Below are positions 4,107 to 15,421 of a DNA stretch of 24,000 nt, piece after piece; the first letter of the stretch is position 1; each line of letters begins with the position of its first letter. Position numbers and translations under genes: made by a program. Source of the stretch: an uncultured Chloroflexia bacterium. Its GTDB lineage: Bacteria > Chloroflexota > Ktedonobacteria > Ktedonobacterales > JADMIN01. The notes below the pieces were generated by a model. That model did not search any database and was not told the origin of the DNA. It worked only from the letters and a program-made list of their open reading frames with translations. Location of the stretch: positions 11,176 to 35,175 of the forward strand of contig CAWENW010000027.1 in NCBI GenBank assembly GCA_963810535.1, written 5' to 3'.

Positions 4107-4883
4107 ATGGAGACAGATATGCAGCCCGAGGTTGTACCAGCAACAACCGGCGAGATCACCGATGCCCTAGTCATCGTGGCTAAGTATCCTGAGCCCGGCC
4201 AGGTCAAGACGCGGCTCGGTGCACGTATTGGAAATGCATCCGCCGCGGCGCTGTATCGGGCGTTTCTTTGCGACCTGGCAGCCCGCTTCAGCGTAGGGGC
4301 CAAGCAGGATGGGTACCTGCTCCACTGGGCCTCGGCGCCCGGGTCCGGCCGATTGACACAGATAGTAGGCGCTCATGCCCATGTCTTCGCGCAGCGCGGC
4401 GTGGATTTCGCCGAGCGGCTCTACAACGTGGCAGTGGATATGCGGTCCGCCGGATACCGGCGCCTGGTTATCATAGGCTCCGACTCGCCACATCTACCGA
4501 GCGTGTTAATTACTCGCGCATTTCGAGAGATTGGTCCGGATCATCTCGCGCTCGGCCCAGCGGAGGACGGCGGCTATTACCTCATCGGCTTCGAGCTCAA
4601 CGCCGGCGTGCCAGACTTCTTTCGCGGCATCCAGATGAGCACGTCTCAAGTGCTGCACGAGACGCTCGCTAGAGCGACCGCGCTCCATTACTCCGCCACG
4701 CTGTTGCCTCACACATTCGACATCGACGAAGTTGCCGATCTCACGAGGCTGGAACTTGAGTTGTGGAGCGCCGAGGCGCCATCCTGTCCGCATACCCGGG
4801 CGGCACTGGCGCAGCTTGGGTTCTTTGGATTATCACCGCGCGAGTCCAGCGAGAAGCGGCGGGATGAGGCGCTCTATGGATAG
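4107..4883 (+). CDS. DUF2064 / TIGR04282-like transferase (rSAM-associated transferase 1 type)
   Basis: LVIVAKYPEPGQVKTRL, VIIGSDSPHL, LGPAEDGGYYLIGF and FDIDEVADL match my memory of the DUF2064 consensus. The ATG directly abuts the GT2 stop (TAG 4104-4106, ATG 4107). Confidence 0.85.
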   Translation: METDMQPEVVPATTGEITDALVIVAKYPEPGQVKTRLGARIGNASAAALYRAFLCDLAARFSVGAKQDGYLLHWASAPGSGRLTQIVGAHAHVFAQRGVDFAERLYNVAVDMRSAGYRRLVIIGSDSPHLPSVLITRAFREIGPDHLALGPAEDGGYYLIGFELNAGVPDFFRGIQMSTSQVLHETLARATALHYSATLLPHTFDIDEVADLTRLELELWSAEAPSCPHTRAALAQLGFFGLSPRESSEKRRDEALYG

Positions 4884-6426
4884 CTCACGCCGGTGGATAG
4901 ACCAGGTGGATGCATATGTCTGGAGATGGCTGGCGCTCGTTCTGCTGGGAGCGTTCGGGATCGTCTGTTACCAACGCATTCGCGAGGCCGGGTCCGCAGT
5001 CTCGGTACACGGATCACCCTATCTTTGGCCCGGGCTCGGCGTGGCACTGGTCGCGATCCTGGGATCTTGGCTGGTGCTCGGAACCAGAGGAGCCAGTCGA
5101 GGTAAAGCAGCCAGATATCAGTGGATAGAGCTTGGCCTGATCATAGGAATCGGGCTGCTTTTCCGCGCCCAGTTCTTCTTCGTGCCTCCGGCGATTTCCC
5201 ACGATGCCTACCGCTACGTCTGGGATGCCCATCTGGTTTCGCATGGCGTGAGTCCCTACCTCTACCCTGCCTCCGCTCCTTCGCTCAGGCCTCTGCGAGA
5301 TGGGGCTATCTGGCCCAATCTCAATTGGCCGAACTCGCCTACTGTCTATCCTCCAGGCGCCGAGCTCATCTTCCTTCTGGTCAATATCGCTGCACCGCTA
5401 AATATTACGGCGATGCAGCTGGCGATGATAGCCTGCGATATCGCCGTCGGCCTGGTGACGCTCCTGCTCCTCCGTCATTTTCGCCTGGATCTGCGCCGGA
5501 TCATAGTCTACTGGTGGAATCCGATCCCGGTGCTGGAATTCGTATACAGCGCCCACATAGACGCTGCCGCCGCCCTCTTCGTAGCCGTGGCACTGCTCCT
5601 GGCGCTGCAGCGCTGGCGTGGAGCCAGGTTGCTAGCCGGAGCGGCCCTGGGCATGGCGGTGCTCATCAAGCTCTATCCGCTGCTATTTGTGGTGGCGCTA
5701 CTCCGGCGGAAAGACTGGGGATTTCTCCTTGGATTCGCAAGCACCATGGTAGGCGTAACATTCCCCTTCCTTCACCTTGGCCTGGGGACAGGGGGGTTCC
5801 TTGGCACGTATTTCTCACAGCGCTTCGTAGATGAAGGGTTAATTTTCCGGTTCATTACAACGCTCGTCACCAACGAACGCTGGCAGCTGCTCCTACAGGG
5901 CACGGTGCTGCTCCTGCTCTCAGGCGCGATCTTGATTGGTCGGCTCAGGTGGGGACTGCCCGCCGTCGCCGCCATTCTGGCGTTGTCTGCGACCTGGATT
6001 CTTGTCTCACCGCACCTCTATCCCTGGTACGTGGGTGGCATATTGCCTCTGCTTGCGATCGTAGTTCAACTGCCAGTCGGCTTCCGCCGCTCCTCCCAGG
6101 AAGGGTCTGGTATCTCCCGCCACTGGTGGGCCTCCTCCATGCCCTATCTCGCCTTCTGGCTCTTTCTGCTGGAAATTCCCTTTACTTATGTCATCTTTGC
6201 GCCGGGTTTCAACGCCAATCTCATCCTCCTCTTTTTCGCGGTGCCGCTAGCACTGGCAAGCATGCCGCTATGGGTTGGCGTCATTCCCGCCCGCGCCCGA
6301 GCTTCCCGAGCTGGTCGTCTGGACCTCGGAGTCACGCCGTCGACAGTCAGCGGAGCAACTGCGGGAGGAGCTGCCAAAACTGGCGAAGTCTTGCTCAAAG
6401 CCACCGAGAAGGAATCACTCACGTGA
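4876..6426 (+). CDS. polytopic membrane glycosyltransferase-like protein (DUF2029 / GT87-like)
   Basis: About 516 aa with more than 10 hydrophobic helices and an HDAYRYVWDAHLVSHGVSPY loop, as in DUF2029/GT-C-like mannosyltransferases. ATG 4876 (alternative ATG 4864) overlaps the upstream stop at 4881-4883. The ORF-track start at 4732 is an over-extension into the preceding gene. Confidence 0.75.
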   Translation: MDSSRRWIDQVDAYVWRWLALVLLGAFGIVCYQRIREAGSAVSVHGSPYLWPGLGVALVAILGSWLVLGTRGASRGKAARYQWIELGLIIGIGLLFRAQFFFVPPAISHDAYRYVWDAHLVSHGVSPYLYPASAPSLRPLRDGAIWPNLNWPNSPTVYPPGAELIFLLVNIAAPLNITAMQLAMIACDIAVGLVTLLLLRHFRLDLRRIIVYWWNPIPVLEFVYSAHIDAAAALFVAVALLLALQRWRGARLLAGAALGMAVLIKLYPLLFVVALLRRKDWGFLLGFASTMVGVTFPFLHLGLGTGGFLGTYFSQRFVDEGLIFRFITTLVTNERWQLLLQGTVLLLLSGAILIGRLRWGLPAVAAILALSATWILVSPHLYPWYVGGILPLLAIVVQLPVGFRRSSQEGSGISRHWWASSMPYLAFWLFLLEIPFTYVIFAPGFNANLILLFFAVPLALASMPLWVGVIPARARASRAGRLDLGVTPSTVSGATAGGAAKTGEVLLKATEKESLT

Positions 6427-8090
6427 TAGACACCAATTCGATCTTGACAAAAATTCGACCCGTGCCAGGAGCGGTCCTCCGTGAGCTGCGGCGGCAGAGC
6501 ATCGCGTTATTGGCCGGCCTGCTGGGTTCGATAGTCGCGGTTATCGTGATGGGAGTGCTGCGACTCTGGTGGGGAGCTCCTACCGCTCCCGAGCTGGTCG
6601 GCGAGCGGTTGTTGCCGCTCATGAGCGCGGACCAGTTTGTGTCGTTACTGTTGCGATTTCAACCCCACCCCAAAACTGGACCATTAGGTCTGGCGCTGCT
6701 TGGCCAATGCGTCATCGGTACTCTGCTCGGACCCGCCTATGCGCTGGTACAATCACGGCTCGGCAAACGGCAGGAGCCGGATGCAGTATCACGGCTCAAC
6801 TGGTGGCCGCCCCGCTCAGCCTGGATGACTGCTGCTGCGTTTGCTCTAGGCATGGAGCTGGTGGCGGTGGCAGTCTTCTGGCCAGTGCTTCCCGAAGGGC
6901 TCTTCGGCGATCCTATTGACACCGCCCGACTGCTAACTATGACCAGCCTCCTGTTGACTTTTGCCTCCTATGCGGCGGTTCTGGCACTGGCCTTTCAGGC
7001 ATTCCGCCGAGTATGGGGAGCGTGGGCCTTCGGCACCGAGACGCGGCCGACGCCCGCGGCTGCTGAAGGCATTCTAGTCACCCGGCGCGAGGCGCTTATA
7101 ACCGCGGGGGCGACTGTCGCGGTCATCGCCGTAGGCGGCATCGCCACGAACGCGCTCATTTCCGAGTACCTAGCTCGTTCGAATATTCCCTACGAAGGAC
7201 GCGGCACCCCCGGCCTTCTTACCTCGCCCATTACTCCCAACGCTGACTTTTATGTCGTGAGCAAAAACGTGCTCGACCCCACCGTAGTGGCCGATCGCTG
7301 GCGTCTGGAGCTGAACGGGTTGGTGCGGAAGCCGCGGAGCTGGACCTATCCAGAGGTACTCGCTTTGCCGAGCGAGGTCCGAGCGGTGACGCTGGAATGC
7401 ATCTCCAACGAGGTGGGGAGTAACCTCTTGAGCACCGCCCGCTGGCGTGGCGTGACGCTGGAGAAATTGCTAGATCTGGGCGGCGGGGTCACCGGCGTAT
7501 CCGCGAGTCACGTGGTCTTCTATGGGGTCGACGGGTTCGCGGCCAGCCTGCCGCTGGCCGCGCTCTTGCAGGCGCGCGCGCTCCTCGCCTGGGAAATGAA
7601 TGGCGTCGCGCTGCCCGACCGGCACGGGTTCCCCTTGCGCGCGATAGTTCCAGGTAGGTATGGCGAACAGAGCGCCAAGTGGGTGACCCGGGTAGAGATT
7701 GTCGACTACAACTTCAAGGGATTCTACCAGAGCCAGGGCTGGAGCGCAGCACAGCTGGAGACGATGAGCCGCATCGACCAGCCGCGCGGCCAGGTGCGAC
7801 CGGGCGGGATCACAGTAAGCGGCGTCGCTTTCGCCGGAATTCGGGGCATACGTCAGGTGGAGCTCAGCGTAGACGGCGGGTCAACCTGGAGCGCCGCCAC
7901 TCTGGTACCTCCGCTGTCAGACCAAACCTGGGTGCTCTGGACATGGAAGTGGTATCCCGCTACGAGCGGCCAGTATACCATACTGGCCCGTGCCACCGAC
8001 GGGTCCGGCGCGGTGCAGACTCAGGCGCAGCGCGGGACCGTGCCTGATGGAGCCACCGGCTGGCCGTCGGCAAAAGTTCTGATAAAGTGA
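6423..8090 (+). CDS. molybdopterin-dependent oxidoreductase (sulfite-oxidase/YedY fold) with N-terminal membrane domain
   Basis: GFPLRAIVPGRYGEQSAKWVTRVEIVD and ECISN are Oxidored_molyb-like, and the C-terminus looks like an Ig-like Mo-co dimerisation domain. GTG 6423 overlaps the upstream TGA (GTGA), with AAGGA 11 nt upstream. ORF-track start 5949 lies inside the previous gene. Confidence 0.85.
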   Translation: MIDTNSILTKIRPVPGAVLRELRRQSIALLAGLLGSIVAVIVMGVLRLWWGAPTAPELVGERLLPLMSADQFVSLLLRFQPHPKTGPLGLALLGQCVIGTLLGPAYALVQSRLGKRQEPDAVSRLNWWPPRSAWMTAAAFALGMELVAVAVFWPVLPEGLFGDPIDTARLLTMTSLLLTFASYAAVLALAFQAFRRVWGAWAFGTETRPTPAAAEGILVTRREALITAGATVAVIAVGGIATNALISEYLARSNIPYEGRGTPGLLTSPITPNADFYVVSKNVLDPTVVADRWRLELNGLVRKPRSWTYPEVLALPSEVRAVTLECISNEVGSNLLSTARWRGVTLEKLLDLGGGVTGVSASHVVFYGVDGFAASLPLAALLQARALLAWEMNGVALPDRHGFPLRAIVPGRYGEQSAKWVTRVEIVDYNFKGFYQSQGWSAAQLETMSRIDQPRGQVRPGGITVSGVAFAGIRGIRQVELSVDGGSTWSAATLVPPLSDQTWVLWTWKWYPATSGQYTILARATDGSGAVQTQAQRGTVPDGATGWPSAKVLIK

Positions 8091-8097
8091 GGCAGTT

Positions 8098-10230
8098 GTG
8101 AGTGTAGCCGATTTCACCCGGATCATGACCGCGCTCGACGACTATAGGCGTGATACCGGTCGCCCGACACTGGCGCTGGGTGGCTGGGAATCAGAAGATC
8201 CAGATATCGTTCCACCGCCAAGCCTGGTCGAGGCGCTCCTTCAGATCTCAGCGCGTCTGCACACCTATACCTATATACGCGAGCTGCATAGAGCCAAGAG
8301 CGCGGCGGCACGGGTCCTCTCCTATGGTGTCCGCATCGACGGCAAATTGCCCGAGGCAATGAACGTGGCCATTGTACCCAACAGCACGCAGGCATTGCTA
8401 CTCACGCTGGCGGCGCTCAAATCACGCGGAGTTGCCCACCTAGTGATTGCCGCACCTGGGTACTTCGCCGCTGCCGAAGCTTGCCGCTACCTGGGCATTG
8501 CAAGCACGATCATTCCGGCCGCCGATTTTGTCACCGGCACGTTTGACACAGGCGCGCTGCTAGCGGCCATGCGTAGCCCAGGAGCGGCGCTCCTGCTCAC
8601 CAATCCCGCCTACTCCATCGGCGTGGAGTACAGCTGGGAGAATCTACACTCCCTCATTTCCGCACTTCCAGAGGAAGCGTTCGTGATACTGGACGAGACG
8701 CGCCTCGGCCTGAACTGGAACGATGAAGCGCCGTGGTATGGCGCGGACTATCCCGACCGGATCGCCGTCATCCGGTCCCCGAGCAAGATCTTCTTCATAA
8801 ACGGACAGAAGACCAGTATCATTCTCGGCTCATCTCCCCTCATCCAATCGATCGAGCAAATCAGTGAATCGCTGCTGGGCTCGGTCGCCGGCGTGTCGGA
8901 GCAGGTCGCAGAGGCCTACCTGCAGTGCTGGGAGCAGTGGGTAAATGAGCTGCGCGCGGGGGAGGTTGGTCCGTTTCGGCAATGGCGGCGGCAGATCATC
9001 GCCACGCTCGCCCGCAACCAGCGAATGGTCGCACGGCATCTCCAGCCGAGGGGATTTCTCCTCTCCCCGGTGAACTCGGGTCCCTACCTGCTTGCCGGTA
9101 CCAGACTCACTCACAGCCATTCTTTAGACAGTTATGCGGCTGCGAGAGAAGAGGGGGTCTTACTCATGGACTCATCCTACTTTCTACACCAACACAGCAA
9201 TTGGTACGGGTTCCGAGTAAATCTATCCGGCGAGGAGCGGCACCTTGCACAGGCTATCTCGCGGATTTTCCCAAAGGAGCAGAAATCAAGCATGGCACAC
9301 TCCCTAACACCCCAGCAGCAGGCACCCCGCTCGCGTCCACGTACTCACGCGACCGAGCCGTTGCCCCTGCCGAGTGAGCTGTATATCGAAAGCACTACCC
9401 GGTGCAATGAATTCTGCGATCAATGCCCGCGCACCCATCTGGGGCGTGAGGGCGACCGCGACGTTACTCTGGCCGAGGTGCAACGCATCGTAGAACAGTT
9501 TCCCAAGCTCGATCGAGTAGTGCTGCACGGACTTGGTGAGCCCTTGCTCAACACCGAGCTGCCAAAGATCATCACCTACCTGCGCTCGCGAGGTGTCTAT
9601 ACGCTCTTCAACTCGAATGCATTGCTGCTCAATGAGCGGAGAGGCCGCAGCCTCATAGAGTCAGGGCTGTGCGAGCTACGTGTCTCCTTTGACGGCGCCA
9701 CTCCCGCAACGTACGCGCGGGTGCGTGGCGTCAACCAGAAAGCATTGCCACTCATCGTAGGCAACCTGGCCAAATTCTCCGCCTTGAAAACAGAGCTTGG
9801 AGCGGAGCTTCCAAAGGTCTCGCTCTGGTTCACCGCCATGCGAGAGAATTTCCGTGAATTGCCCGAAGTGGTTGAGATTGCGTCCAGGACAGGTGTGCCT
9901 GAGGTCTACGTTCAACGCTTCATCTACTTCGGCAAGGGTCTGGCAACTGAGGATCAGACGCTCTTCCACTCGATACGCCAGGAAGAGCGGGAGACATTGC
10001 TTGCCGCCGAGACACGCTGTCGGGAGCTAGGTATTGCCTTTACCGCCACCGGCGCCACCGAGCCGGCAGCCTACCTTGCTCGGACCTCTGGGATGGAGCT
10101 TCGCCGTGGAAGGGTTGCCAGCGTCCGTACAAGCTCGCCTATATTACCGCCCATGGGAATGTGTACTCCTGTTGTTTTGCGCCCTTTACCCCGGGCCGTT
10201 AAGCCAGAAGTGGCTGGGGAACGCGTTTGA
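8098..10230 (+). CDS. class I/II PLP aminotransferase-like domain fused in frame to a radical SAM domain; C-terminus disrupted (see 10104-10344)
   Basis: GTG 8098 follows TGAGG at 5-nt spacing. The N-terminal ~395 aa carry an SxSK PLP-lysine motif (RSPSKIFFINGQK). From residue ~430 there is a radical SAM core with CNEFCDQC (CX3CX2C, nt 9403-9426) and GEPLL. The frame-1 tail after ~10085 (RTSGMELRRGRV...) is non-homologous-looking. Confidence 0.8.
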   Translation: MSVADFTRIMTALDDYRRDTGRPTLALGGWESEDPDIVPPPSLVEALLQISARLHTYTYIRELHRAKSAAARVLSYGVRIDGKLPEAMNVAIVPNSTQALLLTLAALKSRGVAHLVIAAPGYFAAAEACRYLGIASTIIPAADFVTGTFDTGALLAAMRSPGAALLLTNPAYSIGVEYSWENLHSLISALPEEAFVILDETRLGLNWNDEAPWYGADYPDRIAVIRSPSKIFFINGQKTSIILGSSPLIQSIEQISESLLGSVAGVSEQVAEAYLQCWEQWVNELRAGEVGPFRQWRRQIIATLARNQRMVARHLQPRGFLLSPVNSGPYLLAGTRLTHSHSLDSYAAAREEGVLLMDSSYFLHQHSNWYGFRVNLSGEERHLAQAISRIFPKEQKSSMAHSLTPQQQAPRSRPRTHATEPLPLPSELYIESTTRCNEFCDQCPRTHLGREGDRDVTLAEVQRIVEQFPKLDRVVLHGLGEPLLNTELPKIITYLRSRGVYTLFNSNALLLNERRGRSLIESGLCELRVSFDGATPATYARVRGVNQKALPLIVGNLAKFSALKTELGAELPKVSLWFTAMRENFRELPEVVEIASRTGVPEVYVQRFIYFGKGLATEDQTLFHSIRQEERETLLAAETRCRELGIAFTATGATEPAAYLARTSGMELRRGRVASVRTSSPILPPMGMCTPVVLRPLPRAVKPEVAGERV

Positions 10231-10344
10231 GACGCCATTCGAGCATATCTGGAACGGCGAGCGCTACCAGCAGTTCCGCGCTGCGTTTGAGAGTGACACT
10301 CCCTGGCCGCAATGCGCGCCTGTGGGACGAAGTGGAGTCTGTAG
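10104..10344 (+). pseudogene. out-of-frame SPASM-domain C-terminus of the radical SAM gene (three 1-nt deletions)
   Basis: Frame 0 reads PWKGCQRPYKLAYITAHGNVYSCCF (10104-10199). Frame 2 reads PLSQKWLGNAFETPFEHIWNGERYQQFRAAFESDTPWPQCA (10196-10318). Frame 1 reads CGTKWSL-stop (10321-10344). Joined, they form a canonical SPASM/twitch ending. Confidence 0.65.
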
Positions 10345-10455
10345 TCTCTCTTGCTTTTCGGCGGCGGCGCCACACCGGCGGCGTCCGGCGGAGTATACTG
10401 CTCCTACGGCAATTGTACCAGTCGGCTTGTCGCCGGCAGAAAGGGAGGGGTGACT

Positions 10456-11037
10456 ATGCCTCCGTCCGATACCTCATACCAGACTCGTGACGTTAGAATT
10501 TTCGAAGAGTGGTCGCGTACCTACGAGGGCTCGTGGATGCAGAAACGGCTCTTCAATCGCGTCCACCAGGCTGTGCTCGACCTGGCGGCACCCCTTCCGC
10601 CACCCGCAGAAGTGCTCGACGTGGGCTGTGGAACTGGACGACTGTTGCGAGCCGCCGGGATGCGTTGGCCGGAGGCGCAGCTGATCGGAGTCGATCCCGC
10701 ACAAGGGATGGTGGATGCGGCGCAGCGGCTGACCCCCGCCGCCACGTTTCGCCGGGGCCTCGCCGAGTCGCTCCCTCTGCCCGACGCCAGTGTGGACCTG
10801 GTTGTGAGCACCCTTTCCTCTCATCACTGGCGTGATCCGGGTAAGGGAGTAGGCGAGATTGCCCGCGTGCTGCGCCCTGGGGGCCACTTTATTCTGGCTG
10901 ATTTCGGCTTGCCATGGTCCTGGCATGGGTCACATTCCATGGCCGGGGCATGCCCGCCGCCGCCAGGCAACGACTTTTCGGCGCGGCAGGCCTGCGAATT
11001 GAGCGGCAGCAGACGGTTGTCTATCCGTTTATCGTGA
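10456..11037 (+). CDS. class I SAM-dependent methyltransferase; 3' end frameshifted, likely native stop at 11058-11060
   Basis: ATG 10456 is preceded by AGGGAGGGG. Motif I is VLDVGCGTGRL, and the post-I and later motifs are LIGVDP and LRPGGHFILADF. After ~10910 the homologous-looking tail (VLAWVTFHGRGMPAAARQRLFGAAGLRIERQQTVVYPFIVITLASRS) is in the -1 frame. Confidence 0.8.
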   Translation: MPPSDTSYQTRDVRIFEEWSRTYEGSWMQKRLFNRVHQAVLDLAAPLPPPAEVLDVGCGTGRLLRAAGMRWPEAQLIGVDPAQGMVDAAQRLTPAATFRRGLAESLPLPDASVDLVVSTLSSHHWRDPGKGVGEIARVLRPGGHFILADFGLPWSWHGSHSMAGACPPPPGNDFSARQACELSGSRRLSIRLS

Positions 11038-11100
11038 TAACGCTGGCGTCTCGTTCCTAAGAAGCCAGCGACATGATTCAGTACGCCGCCACTCTGAAGG

Positions 11101-11131
11101 GATTAGATAATTGATACTATGTATCAATATC
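11101..11131. promoter_or_regulatory. AT-rich promoter-like segment containing a Fur-box-like palindrome GATAATTGATAC-TAT-GTATCAATATC
   Basis: There is a perfect 7-bp inverted repeat, TTGATAC (11111-11117) and GTATCAA (11121-11127). It extends to ~12-bp arms with one bulged base. The left arm resembles the GATAAT-type Fur box. This is the only strongly AT-rich patch in the gap. Confidence 0.4.
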
Positions 11132-11134
11132 TGG

Positions 11135-11545
11135 ACTGGACAAGACAAGCTAGGACCTGTTGGAGATAGGTGCTAGACTGTACTGAAGCGAATGCAATAG
11201 AACGACATAGCGCAAGAATACGAGACGAAGGATGTCAGGTACCCTATCCCCTGGAAGGGGATGGGCTTGTGAGGGAACGATACCCAAGCACGCCTGAACC
11301 TGACCAGACTCAGTCCGAACTCGGCAACGAGTTCTCGGACTACGATACCGGCGAATGTATAGGCACCTGTGGGTGACGTTCCAGCCCACAGCTCTGCGGC
11401 TCGTAGTTAAACTGACAGACAGGGTTCGAGTCCGTGCTGCGAGCACCTGAAACCGCTGGATATCCTTGTCGAGGAAAACATTACCTGGACGCCGCACGGC
11501 AACCAGAGGCCCGAGAAGGGCAGAAACGGTGTGCGCTATGACCTA
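11135..11545 (+). ncRNA. candidate IscB omega-RNA (HEARO-type RNA); boundaries approximate
   Basis: The 477-nt gap directly upstream of iscB has no credible ORF. It holds several stable local hairpins: 11242-11265, 11313-11340 (GCAA tetraloop), 11367-11391 and 11434-11446. IscB omega-RNAs are known to lie immediately 5' of the ORF and to overlap its start. Confidence 0.55.
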
Positions 11546-12866
11546 CATCTTTGTCGTCGATACCCAGAAACGTCCGCTTACCCCCGTTCACCCAGGAGCC
11601 GCCCGGCGATTACTTACGAAGGGCAAAGCGGCGGTGTGGCGACGCTACCCCTTCGCCATCATTCTCAAGCAGGCCAAACCCGACGAGGCTGCTCCGCCCC
11701 TTCGTCTCAAGATTGATCCCGGCTCGAAGACGACGGGACTGGCCATAGTTCACGACCTAACCGGGCAGGTTCCCTTTGCGGCAGAACTGACCCATCGCGG
11801 CCAGCAGGTCTGCGAGAGGTTGACGGCGCGTCGGGCGGCTCGCCAGGCTCGTCGCGCGCGTCATACACGCTATCGGCCGGCACGCTCCAATAACCGGATC
11901 AGAGCCGAAGGGTGGCTGGCCCCCTCGCTGGAGAGTCGCGTGCAGAACGTGCTCACCTGGGTACACCGGCTGGCACGCCTCTGCCCCATCACCGCTCTCT
12001 CCCTGGAACTCGTCAGGTTTGATACCCACGTGATGCAGAATCCGCAGATCAGCGGAGTGGAGTATCAGCAGGGCGAGCTGGCAGGCTATGAAGTGCGAGA
12101 ATACCTGTTGGAGAAGTGGCATCGGACCTGTGCGTACTGTGGAGCGACCAGCGTCCCGCTGCAGGTTGAGCATATTGTGCCCAGAAGCCGCGGCGGGTCT
12201 CATCGCATCAGTAATCTGACGCTCGCCTGTGCACGCTGCAATCTCGCCAAAGGCACACAGACAGCCGCCGAGTTTGGCCATCCTCAGGTCCAGGCACAAG
12301 CCAACCTGCCGTTGAACGATGCTGCGGCGGTCAACACGACTCGGTGGGTGCTGTATCAGCGTCTTCGGAGCCTGGGTCTCCCGCTGGAAACGGCAAGCGG
12401 TGGACGCACCAAGTGGAATCGCATCCAGCGGAACCTCCCCAAAACACATTGGCTGGATGCAACTTGCGTGGGGGCCAGCACCCCTGTCACACTTGGCGTT
12501 GCCTCCGTGCGGGCACTGCTCATCACGGCCAGGGGACGCGAGTCGCGGCAGATGTGCCTGATGGATACATATGGCTTCCCCAGGACATCGGCCAAAGGCC
12601 AACGACGGATCAAGGGGTTTGTGACGGGTGATCTGGTGCACGCCGTGGTAAGGTCTGGGACAAAGGTTGGGACCTATACCGGGAGGGTCGCCGTCCGTGC
12701 CTCCGGTTCGTTCAATATCACCACCCGTGGTGTGACCGTTGCGGGCATCAACCACCGGAATTGTCATGCCATCCAGCAGGCTGATGGCTATTCATATGAG
12801 AAAGGGGAACGCGCTTTCCTCCCGATCCCCCAAAAGGGAAGGGTCTCCAGCGCGAATGTTCTATGA
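11538..12866 (+). CDS. iscB: IscB RNA-guided endonuclease (OMEGA system; RuvC-HNH, Cas9 ancestor)
   Basis: 442 aa from ATG 11538. Domain order: PLMP-like N-terminus (RPLTPVHPGAARRLLTKGKA), RuvC-I (KIDPGSKTTGLAIV), Arg-rich bridge helix, RuvC-II (LSLELVRFD), HNH (CAYCG...VEHIVPRSRGG...NLTLACARCNLAKG), RuvC-III (THWLDATC), and a C-terminal beta domain (GDLV...GRVAVRASGSFNI). ORF-track TTG 11466 is probably an over-extension into the RNA gene. Confidence 0.9.
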   Translation: MTYIFVVDTQKRPLTPVHPGAARRLLTKGKAAVWRRYPFAIILKQAKPDEAAPPLRLKIDPGSKTTGLAIVHDLTGQVPFAAELTHRGQQVCERLTARRAARQARRARHTRYRPARSNNRIRAEGWLAPSLESRVQNVLTWVHRLARLCPITALSLELVRFDTHVMQNPQISGVEYQQGELAGYEVREYLLEKWHRTCAYCGATSVPLQVEHIVPRSRGGSHRISNLTLACARCNLAKGTQTAAEFGHPQVQAQANLPLNDAAAVNTTRWVLYQRLRSLGLPLETASGGRTKWNRIQRNLPKTHWLDATCVGASTPVTLGVASVRALLITARGRESRQMCLMDTYGFPRTSAKGQRRIKGFVTGDLVHAVVRSGTKVGTYTGRVAVRASGSFNITTRGVTVAGINHRNCHAIQQADGYSYEKGERAFLPIPQKGRVSSANVL

Positions 12867-13492
12867 CGTTTACACATGGCGTCAGCGCCCAGGAAATGAT
12901 TACCGCACTGGAGCAAGCCGGCTTACGCTCCACCCGCCCTCGTAACGCCATCATTGAACAGATCGCTGAGTGGGCCGCCGAAGGGAAAGATTTCAGCAGC
13001 GAGGAGCTCTGGCACGCCACCCAGCAGCATGCCCCCTGGATTGGCCGCGCCACCGCGTTCCGTACGGTTGAGCTGCTCAATGCTCTAGGCTTTCTCGATA
13101 GGGTGACCTTTGCCGACGGCAGCGAACGCTACCATTCGGTGCATCCGGGCACGCACCACCACCATCTGACATGCGCCGAGTGCCACCGGGTGGTCGCCAT
13201 CGACGCCTGCCTGCCGAACCAACTCCTTGAGAAGGTCGAGCGCCAGTCGGGATTCGCCATCTCCGGGCACCGGGTGGAGCTCTTCGGACGATGTCCCAGC
13301 TGCCAGGAGCGAGAACTCCCAAGACGGGAATCAAGTTGGTCTTCGCGGGTCGATTCCACACGGTGTCCCAGTACCGCGCCTGCCACCACGTCGATGAAAA
13401 GACCGGCATCTAGACAGCGACAATTGATGCTAACTGCTGTGGCGAGTTATCCGCGTCCGGCGCGGAAATCGTCACAATGCCGGACTTGTTGA
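12863..13492 (+). CDS. Fur-family metalloregulator (Fur/Zur/PerR type) with an unusual ~55-aa C-terminal tail
   Basis: Winged-helix part: LRSTRPRNAIIEQI...ATAFRTVELLNALGFL. Metal sites: HPGTHHHHLTCAECHRVV and GRCPSCQ. ATG 12863 overlaps the iscB stop (ATGA); the alternative start is ATG 12896. The conserved domain ends near 13310. Confidence 0.8.
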   Translation: MTFTHGVSAQEMITALEQAGLRSTRPRNAIIEQIAEWAAEGKDFSSEELWHATQQHAPWIGRATAFRTVELLNALGFLDRVTFADGSERYHSVHPGTHHHHLTCAECHRVVAIDACLPNQLLEKVERQSGFAISGHRVELFGRCPSCQERELPRRESSWSSRVDSTRCPSTAPATTSMKRPASRQRQLMLTAVASYPRPARKSSQCRTC

Positions 13493-14290
13493 TGCCACTG
13501 ACAGTCACTGTCTCATGCGACCCGCCGTCTAAGTCGCCCGCTGCGGGAGAGACCGAATAGCCATTCACATCGATCGCGCTCCAGCAAGAGCGGAGAACCG
13601 CCCATGTTGGCCACCTAAATGGAGAGCTGGCTCCCAGGACAGAGCGAGTAGAAGGGGACGCTTGTAGGTGAGACAGACAGATCGCGGGATTGGCGTTGCA
13701 GTGGGAGCAGGGGTAGGCGCAGGCGCCGCGGTACTGACCGGAGTGGAGCCTCCAGCTGTGGGAGAGCCACTTGGGAGTGGAGGCGCTGTGGGTACCGCTG
13801 TCTGGCCGGGACCAGCCGTCGCCACGATCTGGCCTGGACCGGCACCTGGCGTTCCACCGGTTTGGCCCGAACCAGCACCTGACGTGGACGAAGCACCGTT
13901 GGTGGGAGCCACGCCAGACGAGGAGCTGGAGTGGAAGGAATTGGCGTTGGCATTGGATGAGGCAAACACGGAGAAGCCACCACGCTGGGAGAGCGCCAGG
14001 ATCCCTGCACCCGCCAGCACTAGCGCCACCGCGAGTATGAGGCTAAGCACCCATACAAATGGCCATTGGCTCCGCGTTCGCGCGGCCGCCGGATGTCGCT
14101 GCGCCTGCCACTGAGAGGTGGGAGCCACCTGCGCCAGCCCAGCCCGGGTAGCATTGTTGGAGATCGCACCATCTTCTGGGTCCGGAAGAGACTGTGAAGC
14201 ATCGACCCTCGCACCGCAGATGGGACAGTGGCCGATGTAAAATTGCGCTGCAGTCAGACTAGCACCACATTCACCGCAGTAGCGCGACAT
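13410..14290 (-). pseudogene. zinc-ribbon / single-TM / low-complexity / Ig-like-domain protein, decayed paralog of 14570..15421
   Basis: The ORF 13565..14290 encodes the zinc ribbon (CGECG...CPICG), a TM helix and an S/T/P/G-rich linker. The C-terminal domain continues in other frames down to TAG 13410-13412 and aligns without gaps to the paralog. This requires two 1-nt insertions (~13681-13690 and 13584) and reading through an in-frame TAG at 13615-13617. Confidence 0.7.
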
Positions 14291-14569: not shown

Positions 14570-15421
14570 CTATAGCGTGCAGGTGATAGTGACTTGCTGC
14601 GGCGAGTTGCTGGCTTTGTATCCGGATACGGTAACGATACCAGACTGGTCGATATTGCTTACCGTCACTGTTACCTGGAGTCCCGGGTCGATGGTTCCGA
14701 TCTTCGGCGAAATCGCATATTTGGTGACATTGGCCGACGCGTTCCAGATTAGGGCTGCGCCGCCGCTATTAGAAACGGTAAAACTTATCTTGGAACCGTA
14801 GCAGACCGCTATGGGCTTTGGCATGGTAGGCGTAACCACCAGGTAAGGCGGAGCTGGCGTCGCCGTAGGAGAGCTGGCAGGGGACGGAGCTGGCGAACCG
14901 ATAGGTGTGACGTCTGTCGACGTTGCAGAGACTATGGCCGAAGGTGAAGTAGTGGCCTGGCCGGGTAGTGAGATAGGCGTGCTGAGGGGCGCGCCCCCTC
15001 CGAAGGTGGAGGAGATGCTCGGACTCGGCGTCGCACCTGAAGACGCAGCCAACGCGGTGTTCGTTGCGCTGCCCAGCACCGTTCCGTCCTGGCCGCCGGT
15101 TCCTCCAGCAAAGTGCGCTAAGGCCAGGACACTGGCGCAGGCACACAGGAGTGCGACCGCGACCACCAGACTGATGATCCAGAGAGGGCGCCCCCTTTGC
15201 TTGGCGCTGCGGGCCGGAGTTGCCGGTGGCTGATACGGCTGGGTAGGAGTGCCGCTCGCTCCAAATGCGAAGTGGGTAGTCGCATCAAGGTGCAGACCCA
15301 AGTCTGGACTCACTTCCGAAGTTGACGCGTCAACTTCGGCGCCGCAGACTGGGCAGCGTCCGCTTGCTACCGCCTCGACGCTCAGGCTGTTTCCGCAGTG
15401 GCCGCAGTAGCGCACCATCAT
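14570..15421 (-). CDS. zinc-ribbon / single-TM / low-complexity / C-terminal Ig-like-domain membrane protein
   Basis: 283 aa. It has YCGHCG...CPVCG, the TM helix LWIISLVVAVALLCACASVLAL, an S/T/P/A-rich linker, and then a beta-rich domain (ISFTVSNSGGAALIWNA...VTVTVSN...SPQQVTITCTL). GGGGGTGAG lies upstream of the ATG. Confidence 0.8.
   Translation of the reverse strand: MMVRYCGHCGNSLSVEAVASGRCPVCGAEVDASTSEVSPDLGLHLDATTHFAFGASGTPTQPYQPPATPARSAKQRGRPLWIISLVVAVALLCACASVLALAHFAGGTGGQDGTVLGSATNTALAASSGATPSPSISSTFGGGAPLSTPISLPGQATTSPSAIVSATSTDVTPIGSPAPSPASSPTATPAPPYLVVTPTMPKPIAVCYGSKISFTVSNSGGAALIWNASANVTKYAISPKIGTIDPGLQVTVTVSNIDQSGIVTVSGYKASNSPQQVTITCTL

Follow-up and report, generated by a model that had tools for sequence, protein, structure and literature searches.

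An iscB gene and its protein in a Ktedonobacterales window

We analyzed a window of 24,000 nucleotides (nt), that is, the whole 24-kb stretch of DNA from an uncultured Chloroflexota bacterium, in which an iscB gene for an RNA-guided nuclease lies between a group of biosynthetic genes and a gene for a Fur-family regulator. Directly upstream of iscB lies its omega-RNA, and the last four bases of the iscB gene, ATGA, hold both the iscB stop codon and the ATG of fur. We read positions 11234-12862 as one copy of a non-autonomous ISC2-type element of the IS200/IS605 superfamily, composed of an omega-RNA scaffold and iscB only and inserted where an N|ATGA target coincides with the fur start codon. 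We assign this reading a probability of about 0.88.

The gene occupies an open frame at 11466-12866 on the forward strand, in which an ATG at 11538 opens a protein of 442 amino acids (aa). A public record (P0001) starts the same gene at a GTG at 11529, which yields 445 aa; the consensus N terminus of the family, MSxVFVVD, favors the ATG. The gene and the layout of its product are as follows:

11538-12866 (+): iscB coding sequence, 442 aa, with the stop codon at 12864-12866
Domain order of the protein: RuvC-I (D60), bridge helix, RuvC-II (E157), HNH, RuvC-III (H304/D307), C-terminal beta-rich domain
HNH residues, between RuvC-II and RuvC-III: C198/C201/H212/C231/C234/N235

An earlier prediction made from the window sequence (hereafter, the original prediction) had described an intact, solo IscB with this architecture, and the identity was borne out. 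The protein scored 431 bits with the NCBIfam model NF040563 (guided_IscB; cut-off 175), while Cas9 models scored the 442-aa protein far under their own cut-offs. Pfam RRXRR matched over its full model at residues 4-179 (2e-66), a region that comprises the predicted PLMP-type N-terminal domain with RuvC-I and the Arg-rich bridge helix, and Pfam HNH families matched residues 198-247. The residues named in the original prediction (D60, E157, C198, C201, H212, C231, C234, N235, H304, and D307), which include the four Cys of the HNH zinc site besides the catalytic residues, did not vary across 28 aligned homologues of 63-72% identity. In a profile-to-PDB alignment, the catalytic residues fell in register with the OgeuIscB motifs IDPG, LELxRF, (E/H)H-VVP, and K-H-LDA, at positions homologous to those of solved IscBs. 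The closest solved structures by sequence were TbaIscB, HfmIscB, and OgeuIscB (E-values 1e-28 to 1e-37), with the profile alignment extending only to about residue 342.

The AlphaFold (AF2) model of the protein was mediocre, with a predicted local distance difference test (pLDDT) score of 64, and was used for a fold-level match only. It showed a beta-rich C-terminal domain, but pLDDT fell below 50 at residues 325-354 and 416-442. The top 10 Foldseek matches of this model in the PDB were all IscB/IsrB–omega-RNA–DNA complexes; the best was 8csz_D (E = 4e-22; TM, the template modeling score, 0.55), and identity to the solved proteins in structural alignments was about 20%.

Many homologues are called "5-methylcytosine-specific restriction endonuclease McrA" by JGI. 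That name and the matches to Pfam HNH families are what one would see for an ordinary protein-guided HNH endonuclease of the McrA type. We rejected this identity because RRXRR and split RuvC motifs flank the HNH domain, the IscB equivalog model scored 431 bits, the best sequence and fold matches were IscB–omega-RNA complexes, and a HEARO RNA lay upstream of iscB in every related locus scanned (nine of nine). As judged from sequence and modeled fold, the window protein is a complete IscB, its C-terminal domain for interaction with the target-adjacent motif being putative. The nearest loci in species-representative genomes were about 60% identical, and the named homologues of both this IscB and the adjacent Fur came from metagenome-assembled genomes of Ktedonobacterales and other Chloroflexota.

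The absence of transposase and CRISPR components was also confirmed. Domain scans covered the large open reading frames (ORFs) of the 24-kb window and, beyond these, 97 further stop-to-stop segments of at least 85 codons in all six frames; they detected neither a Y1 transposase (PF01797) nor Cas1 or Cas2 domains, and repeat searches of the window found no CRISPR-like direct or tandem repeats. Thus, the element is non-autonomous, as the definition of the family allows. The missing tnpA says little in itself, as a nearby tnpA accompanies only about 1.5% of iscB genes and is lacking from about 98.5% (Meers et al. preprint). The rarity that the original prediction had implied for an IscB without TnpA does not hold, the more so as ISC2 has been known since 2016 (PMC4810608).

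The mobile unit consists of an omega-RNA and iscB

The features that define the unit around iscB are the following:

11234-11484 (+): omega-RNA scaffold (Rfam HEARO RF02033); the left boundary of the element falls on its first base
11242-11265 (no strand): 5' subterminal hairpin, CCC-T-ATCCCC / GGGGATGGG, a DNA fold and the presumed TnpA recognition hairpin
12821-12843 (no strand): 3' subterminal hairpin, inside the iscB coding sequence

HEARO RF02033 scored 120.8 bits over its full length, above the gathering score of 83 (E = 8e-25). The term solo therefore applies to the lack of TnpA, Cas proteins, and CRISPR array but not to the gene standing alone, as a complete HEARO omega-RNA accompanies it. 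The HEARO model ends about 50 nt short of the iscB ORF. HEARO is the omega-RNA of IscB, and real omega-RNAs reach further downstream than the Rfam model (Meers et al. preprint); the RNA in the window probably extends past 11484 toward 11537.

At 90% identity, the window IscB falls into a cluster of six sequences on different large contigs, and the DNA of four of these loci (L008-L011) was compared. L010 is the orthologous locus of another lineage, where glycosyltransferase, Mo-oxidoreductase, radical-SAM, methyltransferase, and Fur genes are neighbors as in the window. In L008, the element precedes a gene for a KaiC-like ATPase, and L011 holds a frameshifted copy at the same site. In L009, it precedes a phosphoribosyltransferase-family gene (PyrR-like by position), which is followed by pyrB, pyrC, and carAB. 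Because L009 and L011 share one contig, one genome has at least two copies of the element. The L011 copy (8001-9023) carries frameshifting indels and is called as a truncated IscB of 340 aa, while the L008 copy, from another sample, is intact; thus, decay and maintenance coexist in the population.

Among the copies (window/L010, L008/L011, and L009), similarity sets in precisely at 11234 (GTCAGG...) and breaks off precisely at 12866, where the iscB stop codon ends (...CTATGA), with unrelated flanks. Each independent insertion has its own 5' flank, the similarity breaking at 11233/11234. The alignment of genomic copies, which the original prediction had proposed for defining the ends, in this way placed the boundaries at 11234 and 12866. 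The shared ends therefore delimit a 1.63-kb unit with nothing but the omega-RNA and iscB, and its left boundary corresponds to the transposon right end (RE) in the IS200/IS605 orientation. At the DNA level, identity among the copies of the three sites is 94-97%. Both ends carry hairpins with the same arms, CCC-N-ATCCCC / GGGGATGGG, the 5' arms matching the 3' hairpin of L008 and L009.

The element lies between the 5' untranslated region of fur and its start codon

The right end of the element and the region upstream of it contain the following features:

12863-12866 (+): terminal ATGA, the N|ATGA target and predicted target-adjacent motif (TAM); it holds the IscB stop TGA and is the native ATG of fur
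12863-13492 (+): host fur-family regulator, with the Fur domain at residues 19-140 (Pfam FUR, 1e-22)
11110-11128 (no strand): perfect palindrome ATTGATAC-TAT-GTATCAAT in the fur upstream region, kept in the element-free fur loci L092 and L093
11171-11179 (+): TGcTAGACT block, conserved in the window, L010, L092, and L093
11218-11233 (+): guide position, the last 16 nt of the fur 5' untranslated region (5'-UTR), ATACGAGACGAAGGAT, outside the mobile unit

All copies share the terminal ATGA, and in each locus gene calling places the start of the downstream host gene at its ATG. The element-free fur homologues L092 and L093 read ...tatt|ATGACCTTT, which translates as MTF..., and the N terminus of the window Fur is MTFTHGVSA.... 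When the window flanks were joined in silico, they aligned colinearly and without duplication with these uninterrupted fur loci, and the 170 nt 5' of the element were homologous to the fur upstream region of both. Thus, the element sits between the fur 5'-UTR and the fur ATG, and the alignments show the ATGA of the 3' junction to be the native ATG of fur. We also considered a GT|GA target, which was disfavored compared to N|ATGA, as the uninterrupted fur loci read ATGA and not GTGA.

The original prediction had placed iscB in apparent transcriptional continuity with both neighbors. This stands on the fur side, where the element lies in the fur 5'-UTR and abuts the ATG. On the biosynthetic side it lacks support, as a stem-loop and the conserved control region of fur intervene. 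The stem-loop (11041-11070) has an 11-bp stem (CGCTGGCGTCT / AGAAGCCAGCG) directly after the methyltransferase stop codon and lacks a U-tract; it might set the fur unit apart from the biosynthetic genes. Within the control region, the palindrome is a candidate Fur-family operator, and the TGcTAGACT block, by its conservation only, is a candidate extended -10 element of a fur promoter from which transcription would proceed into the guide and the omega-RNA.

The 16-nt length of the guide was taken by analogy with characterized IscBs. The guide ATACGAGACGAAGGAT had no second match in the 24-kb window, its sole match being its own flank. At the occupied site, GTCA instead of ATGA comes after the DNA that matches the guide, which would spare this site from self-cleavage.

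These results bear on the proposal that the element is non-autonomous or domesticated, of which we retain the first half. A domesticated, immobilized IscB might be kept as a regulator or defense factor, for instance as a TldR-like RNA-guided binder on the fur control region. Such a role would sit well with an iscB that overlaps the fur start behind the fur control region, with an ORF that has stayed intact while its neighbors carry frameshifts, with a weakened 3' hairpin, and with the lack of TnpA in 24 kb. However, iscB without tnpA is normal, and all nuclease residues are intact, unlike in nuclease-dead domesticated relatives. Furthermore, the guide is the local 5' flank only, as in any transposon copy, and the same omega-RNA/iscB unit recurs with sharp ends at at least three sites with different flanks. 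We thus regard domestication as highly improbable.

A low-divergence tract and the state of the copy

Comparison of the window with the orthologous locus L010 delimited one further feature:

11110-13230 (no strand): low-divergence tract relative to L010, comprising the element, about 124 nt of left flank, and about 120-360 nt of right flank

Over 12 kb, the window shares 94.2% identity with L010. The element differs at only 2 of 1633 nt (99.88% identity), compared to 94.6% and 90.7% identity in the flanks. Over the 2121 nt of the tract there are 6 differences, compared to a divergence of 7.3% outside it (Fisher p = 1e-53), and the three longest difference-free runs of the 12-kb alignment all fall within the element. 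This pattern indicates a recent transfer into, or conversion of, the site in one of the lineages, with short co-converted flanks. Such a footprint would be expected if IscB cut an empty allele and homologous repair ensued (mechanism of Meers et al. preprint). The L008/L011 pair was uninformative on homing, as both come from the same strain.

Between copies, the ratio of nonsynonymous to synonymous substitution rates (dN/dS) of iscB was 0.22-0.35, in line with purifying selection. The omega-RNA region was 96.7-98% identical between sites and thus more conserved than synonymous sites (dS 0.13-0.16). These values, together with the DNA identity among the three sites and the low divergence from L010, suggest that the window copy is functional or was so recently, and the protein appears to be a compact functional nuclease of 442 aa, for which the omega-RNA is defined and a guide and an ATGA TAM are predicted.

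In the window and L010, the 3' hairpin has three substitutions relative to L008 and L009. Together with the decay by frameshifts of the sister copy L011 at another site and the lack of a transposase in the 24-kb window, this would suit an inactive relic, unable to move or cut and persisting because excision has been lost. Against this speak the intact ORF and omega-RNA, the dN/dS of 0.22-0.35 between copies, and the near identity to the copy of a lineage diverged by about 6%, which means that the element arrived or was converted very recently. A relic is therefore very unlikely as well, if marginally less so than domestication.

Several points weigh against our reading of a mobile ISC2-type element at the fur start codon. 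The 62-nt 3' end of the window copy folds with -11.4 kcal/mol, compared to -15.6 in L008 and -15.2 in L009, and with a 3' hairpin about 4 kcal/mol less stable than in its sister copies it may excise poorly. No TnpA is visible in the 24-kb window, which weighs against current mobility. The element-free fur loci L092 and L093 are homologues of about 85% identity in a different neighborhood (znuABC), and as such are analogues of an empty site rather than the same locus. A scan of 10900-13600 for consensus sigma-70 promoters and terminators gave no match, so that the promoter was assigned from conservation. The low-divergence tract could result from ordinary homologous recombination without IscB cleavage. 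Last, we infer the TAM, guide length, RNA processing, cleavage, and translational coupling of the window system.

Start codons at the 3' ends of related elements

In three subfamilies retrieved by a genome scan, the element ends in (T/G)ATGA, and the terminal ATG opens an ORF of 165-718 aa in seven of eight independent insertions. Within the L001-L003 family, L002 is the sole copy without a long ORF at the terminal ATG, and a tRNA gene (5222-5296, -) lies about 450 nt upstream of its omega-RNA.

The analysis was extended to 80 further metagenome loci, in which the 3' terminus was located with an nhmmer model whose seeds had been chosen by eye; some 35 of the 80 belong to different 3'-end subfamilies (many reading ...GGTGA) that lie outside this model. 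A terminal ATGA, ATGG, or GTGA was found in about 40 loci. With the eye-chosen seeds included, 25 of 35 evaluable termini opened at least 80 codons, compared to 33% of other same-strand [AG]TG[AG] sites in the flanks (p = 5e-6). Without the seed loci, the count was 11 of 20, which gives p = 0.038 against this lenient null and p = 7e-9 against a chance of about 6% of hitting a true start codon.

Some loci depart from this arrangement. In L028 (~4352-4390) and L058 (~2272-2290), the terminal ATG opens few codons and a co-oriented gene with its own Shine-Dalgarno sequence begins 15-35 nt further on; these insertions are therefore in a 5'-UTR and not on a start codon. A second 3'-end subfamily, ...GGGGCATCCTGGCCCG...GGTGA, ends in GTGA (L041, L052, L054, L057, L064, L069, L077, L085, and L091).

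Two further checks were independent of the seeds of the 3' model. First, in 7 of 10 downstream ORFs, a Pfam domain starts at model position 1-2 (6 for MIP) within the first 2-10 residues. These seven comprise LacI, Response_reg, MIP, CN_hydrolase, LepA (GTP_EFTU domain), CofD, and RsmH (MraW methylase domain), and their domain starts are as expected if these are native N termini. Second, left ends were located with a separate model in 52 loci. The 20 nt 5' of the element paired with the anti-Shine-Dalgarno sequence at a mean of -4.13 kcal/mol, compared to -1.87 kcal/mol in controls (Mann-Whitney p = 7e-8), and this signal was lost 25 nt further upstream. In this clade, the guide region thus appears usually to hold the host ribosome-binding site, and the predicted TAM usually to be the host start codon.

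Two positions of the iscB stop codon were seen: within the 3' hairpin loop, at a distance of 31-36 nt ahead of the ATG, or overlapping with the ATG as TGATGA or ATGA. The window family shows the full overlap.

These observations can be joined in a tentative scheme of docking at start codons. The TnpA target and TAM of the clade, [A/G]TG[A/G], would usually be a host start codon, so that the element comes to lie between the Shine-Dalgarno sequence, contained in the guide, and the ATG. The host promoter would transcribe guide, omega-RNA, iscB, and host gene as a unit, and the host gene would be translated by coupling to the iscB stop codon, which in several lineages, including that of the window, would have moved into the ATGA itself. 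We hold this scheme as a whole, including the shift of the stop codon, to be possible, with odds somewhat short of even. No report of the coincidence with start codons was found in the literature searched, which did not include the original HEARO paper. That paper, by Weinberg et al. in 2009, reportedly noted ATGA/GTGA insertion sites and is said to have perhaps commented on start codons, and the pattern may for this reason not be new.

A proposed cycle at the fur locus and its implications

For the window element, transcription from the upstream fur promoter would yield one RNA with the last ~16 nt of the fur 5'-UTR as the guide, followed by the omega-RNA, iscB, and fur. Elements with iscB have been shown to favor the orientation of the gene upstream of them, and it has been argued that, with the guide outside the element, transcription must come from outside (Meers et al. 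preprint). The IscB–omega-RNA complex would then recognize the empty fur allele (16 nt plus the TAM ATGA) and not the occupied site, which carries GTCA. An ATGA-type TAM is predicted because published TAMs fit it: that of GstIscB is TTCAT, or ATGAA in the iscB orientation (Meers et al. preprint), and that of DtIsrB is NTGA. Upon excision of the element by a Y1 transposase supplied in trans, or upon entry of an empty homologous allele, IscB would cut the empty allele. Because the host Shine-Dalgarno sequence is displaced 1.6 kb upstream, translation of fur probably depends on termination and reinitiation at the overlapping IscB stop and fur start (ATGA).

How such sites might be favored can be outlined in steps, each of which we infer. 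With a target of only 4 nt, insertions would persist if they are transcribed in the sense direction from a host promoter, as the guide requires, and if they do not destroy the gene. In short 5'-UTRs, the commonest ATGA would be the start codon itself, and the displacement of the Shine-Dalgarno sequence by 1.6 kb would favor elements in which stop codon and host ATG are coupled.

As one more IscB in a family of thousands, the window protein matters little by itself; only the docking at start codons and the low-divergence tract might be of specialist interest. The former would let an element whose guide lies outside its own borders gain expression from its seat between the host ribosome-binding site and the ATG. 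If general, it would explain the published orientation bias of iscB at base-pair resolution, IscB activity would follow the regulation of the host gene, and many host genes would be translated by coupling to a transposon ORF. If it is true of the window, the element has captured the promoter of a Fur-family regulator and its activity could thus be metal-responsive, and the 2.1-kb near-identical tract between lineages diverged by about 6% would be a natural co-conversion footprint of IscB homing. A sharply bounded tract of low divergence would be a rare natural footprint for homing in environmental populations.

Neighboring genes

The original prediction had described several neighboring genes as damaged, which comparison with L010 corroborated. 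The aminotransferase/radical-SAM/SPASM fusion gene (window 8098-10490) has 1-nt deletions at 10102, 10195, and 10317, and the SPASM domain is displaced into another frame, while the ortholog in L010 (4568-6817) is a single ORF of 749 aa. The methyltransferase gene has a 1-nt deletion at 10914. These deletions may be either real pseudogenization or assembly errors.

The window Fur has 209 aa, and its C-terminal tail differs from that of the 165-aa ortholog after residue ~150 owing to indels at 13314-13431. The region 13314-13700, which adjoins the near-identical tract, is an indel hotspot relative to L010 (8, 7, 12, and 10 nt, and others) with 70-80% identity; it covers the tail of Fur and the 3' end of a convergent 241-aa gene.

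The products of two neighboring genes on the reverse strand, 13565-14290 and 14570-15421, have a zinc-ribbon-like CxxC...CxxC motif at the N terminus. In the first, the motif is followed by a long low-complexity region rich in Pro, Ala, Thr, and Ser; the second gave weak double-zinc-ribbon matches, the only Pfam matches of the pair. L008 has a cobalamin riboswitch (6289-6527, -; 78.7 bits) in front of a divergent FecCD/ABC transporter operon, at about 1.2 kb from the element.

Comparison with known systems

The window element is a further example of the known ISC2 kind, in which an IscB without tnpA is the rule and not the exception. ISC2 elements are IscB-only, non-autonomous transposons first described from the Chloroflexi Ktedonobacter racemifer (Kapitonov, Makarova and Koonin 2016, PMC4810608), and the targets reported for ISC elements are N|ATGA, GT|GA, or GT|GG (PMC4810608). 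The likeness extends to a length of ~1.3-1.7 kb, IscB as the only encoded protein, the 5'-GTCA terminus, subterminal imperfect hairpins, the lack of terminal inverted repeats and of target duplication, multiple copies per genome, and a Chloroflexota host. The N|ATGA target and the terminal ATGA likewise match published ISC termini (PMC4810608). In contrast, the window element belongs to another sequence family, and its iscB ORF reads through the 3' hairpin and ends in the TGA of the target site; the 2016 description does not mention that ATGA targets coincide with host start codons.

With the characterized IscBs (OgeuIscB, 7xht/7utn/8csz; GstIscB; TbaIscB; HfmIscB), the window protein shares domain order and catalytic motifs, an upstream omega-RNA, a 5' guide from the flank, and a TAM 3' of the target, as predicted for the window. 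It differs in its identity of only about 20% to them in structural alignments and in being known from sequence alone. The RNA is a full-length match to HEARO RF02033 directly 5' of an HNH/IscB ORF, without substantial difference.

Type II CRISPR-Cas9 has a homologous RuvC-HNH effector, and the HNH and RuvC motifs align with those of Cas9d and Cas9. However, the window IscB lacks the recognition (REC) lobe, Cas1/Cas2, and a CRISPR array, and its guide is fixed by the insertion site. TldRs, the nuclease-dead domesticated TnpB repressors (PMC10705468), resemble it in that a protein of the OMEGA type (named for obligate mobile element-guided activity) stands beside a host regulatory region. TldRs have lost their catalytic residues and their guides aim at distant promoters, while the window IscB is intact and its guide is the local flank.

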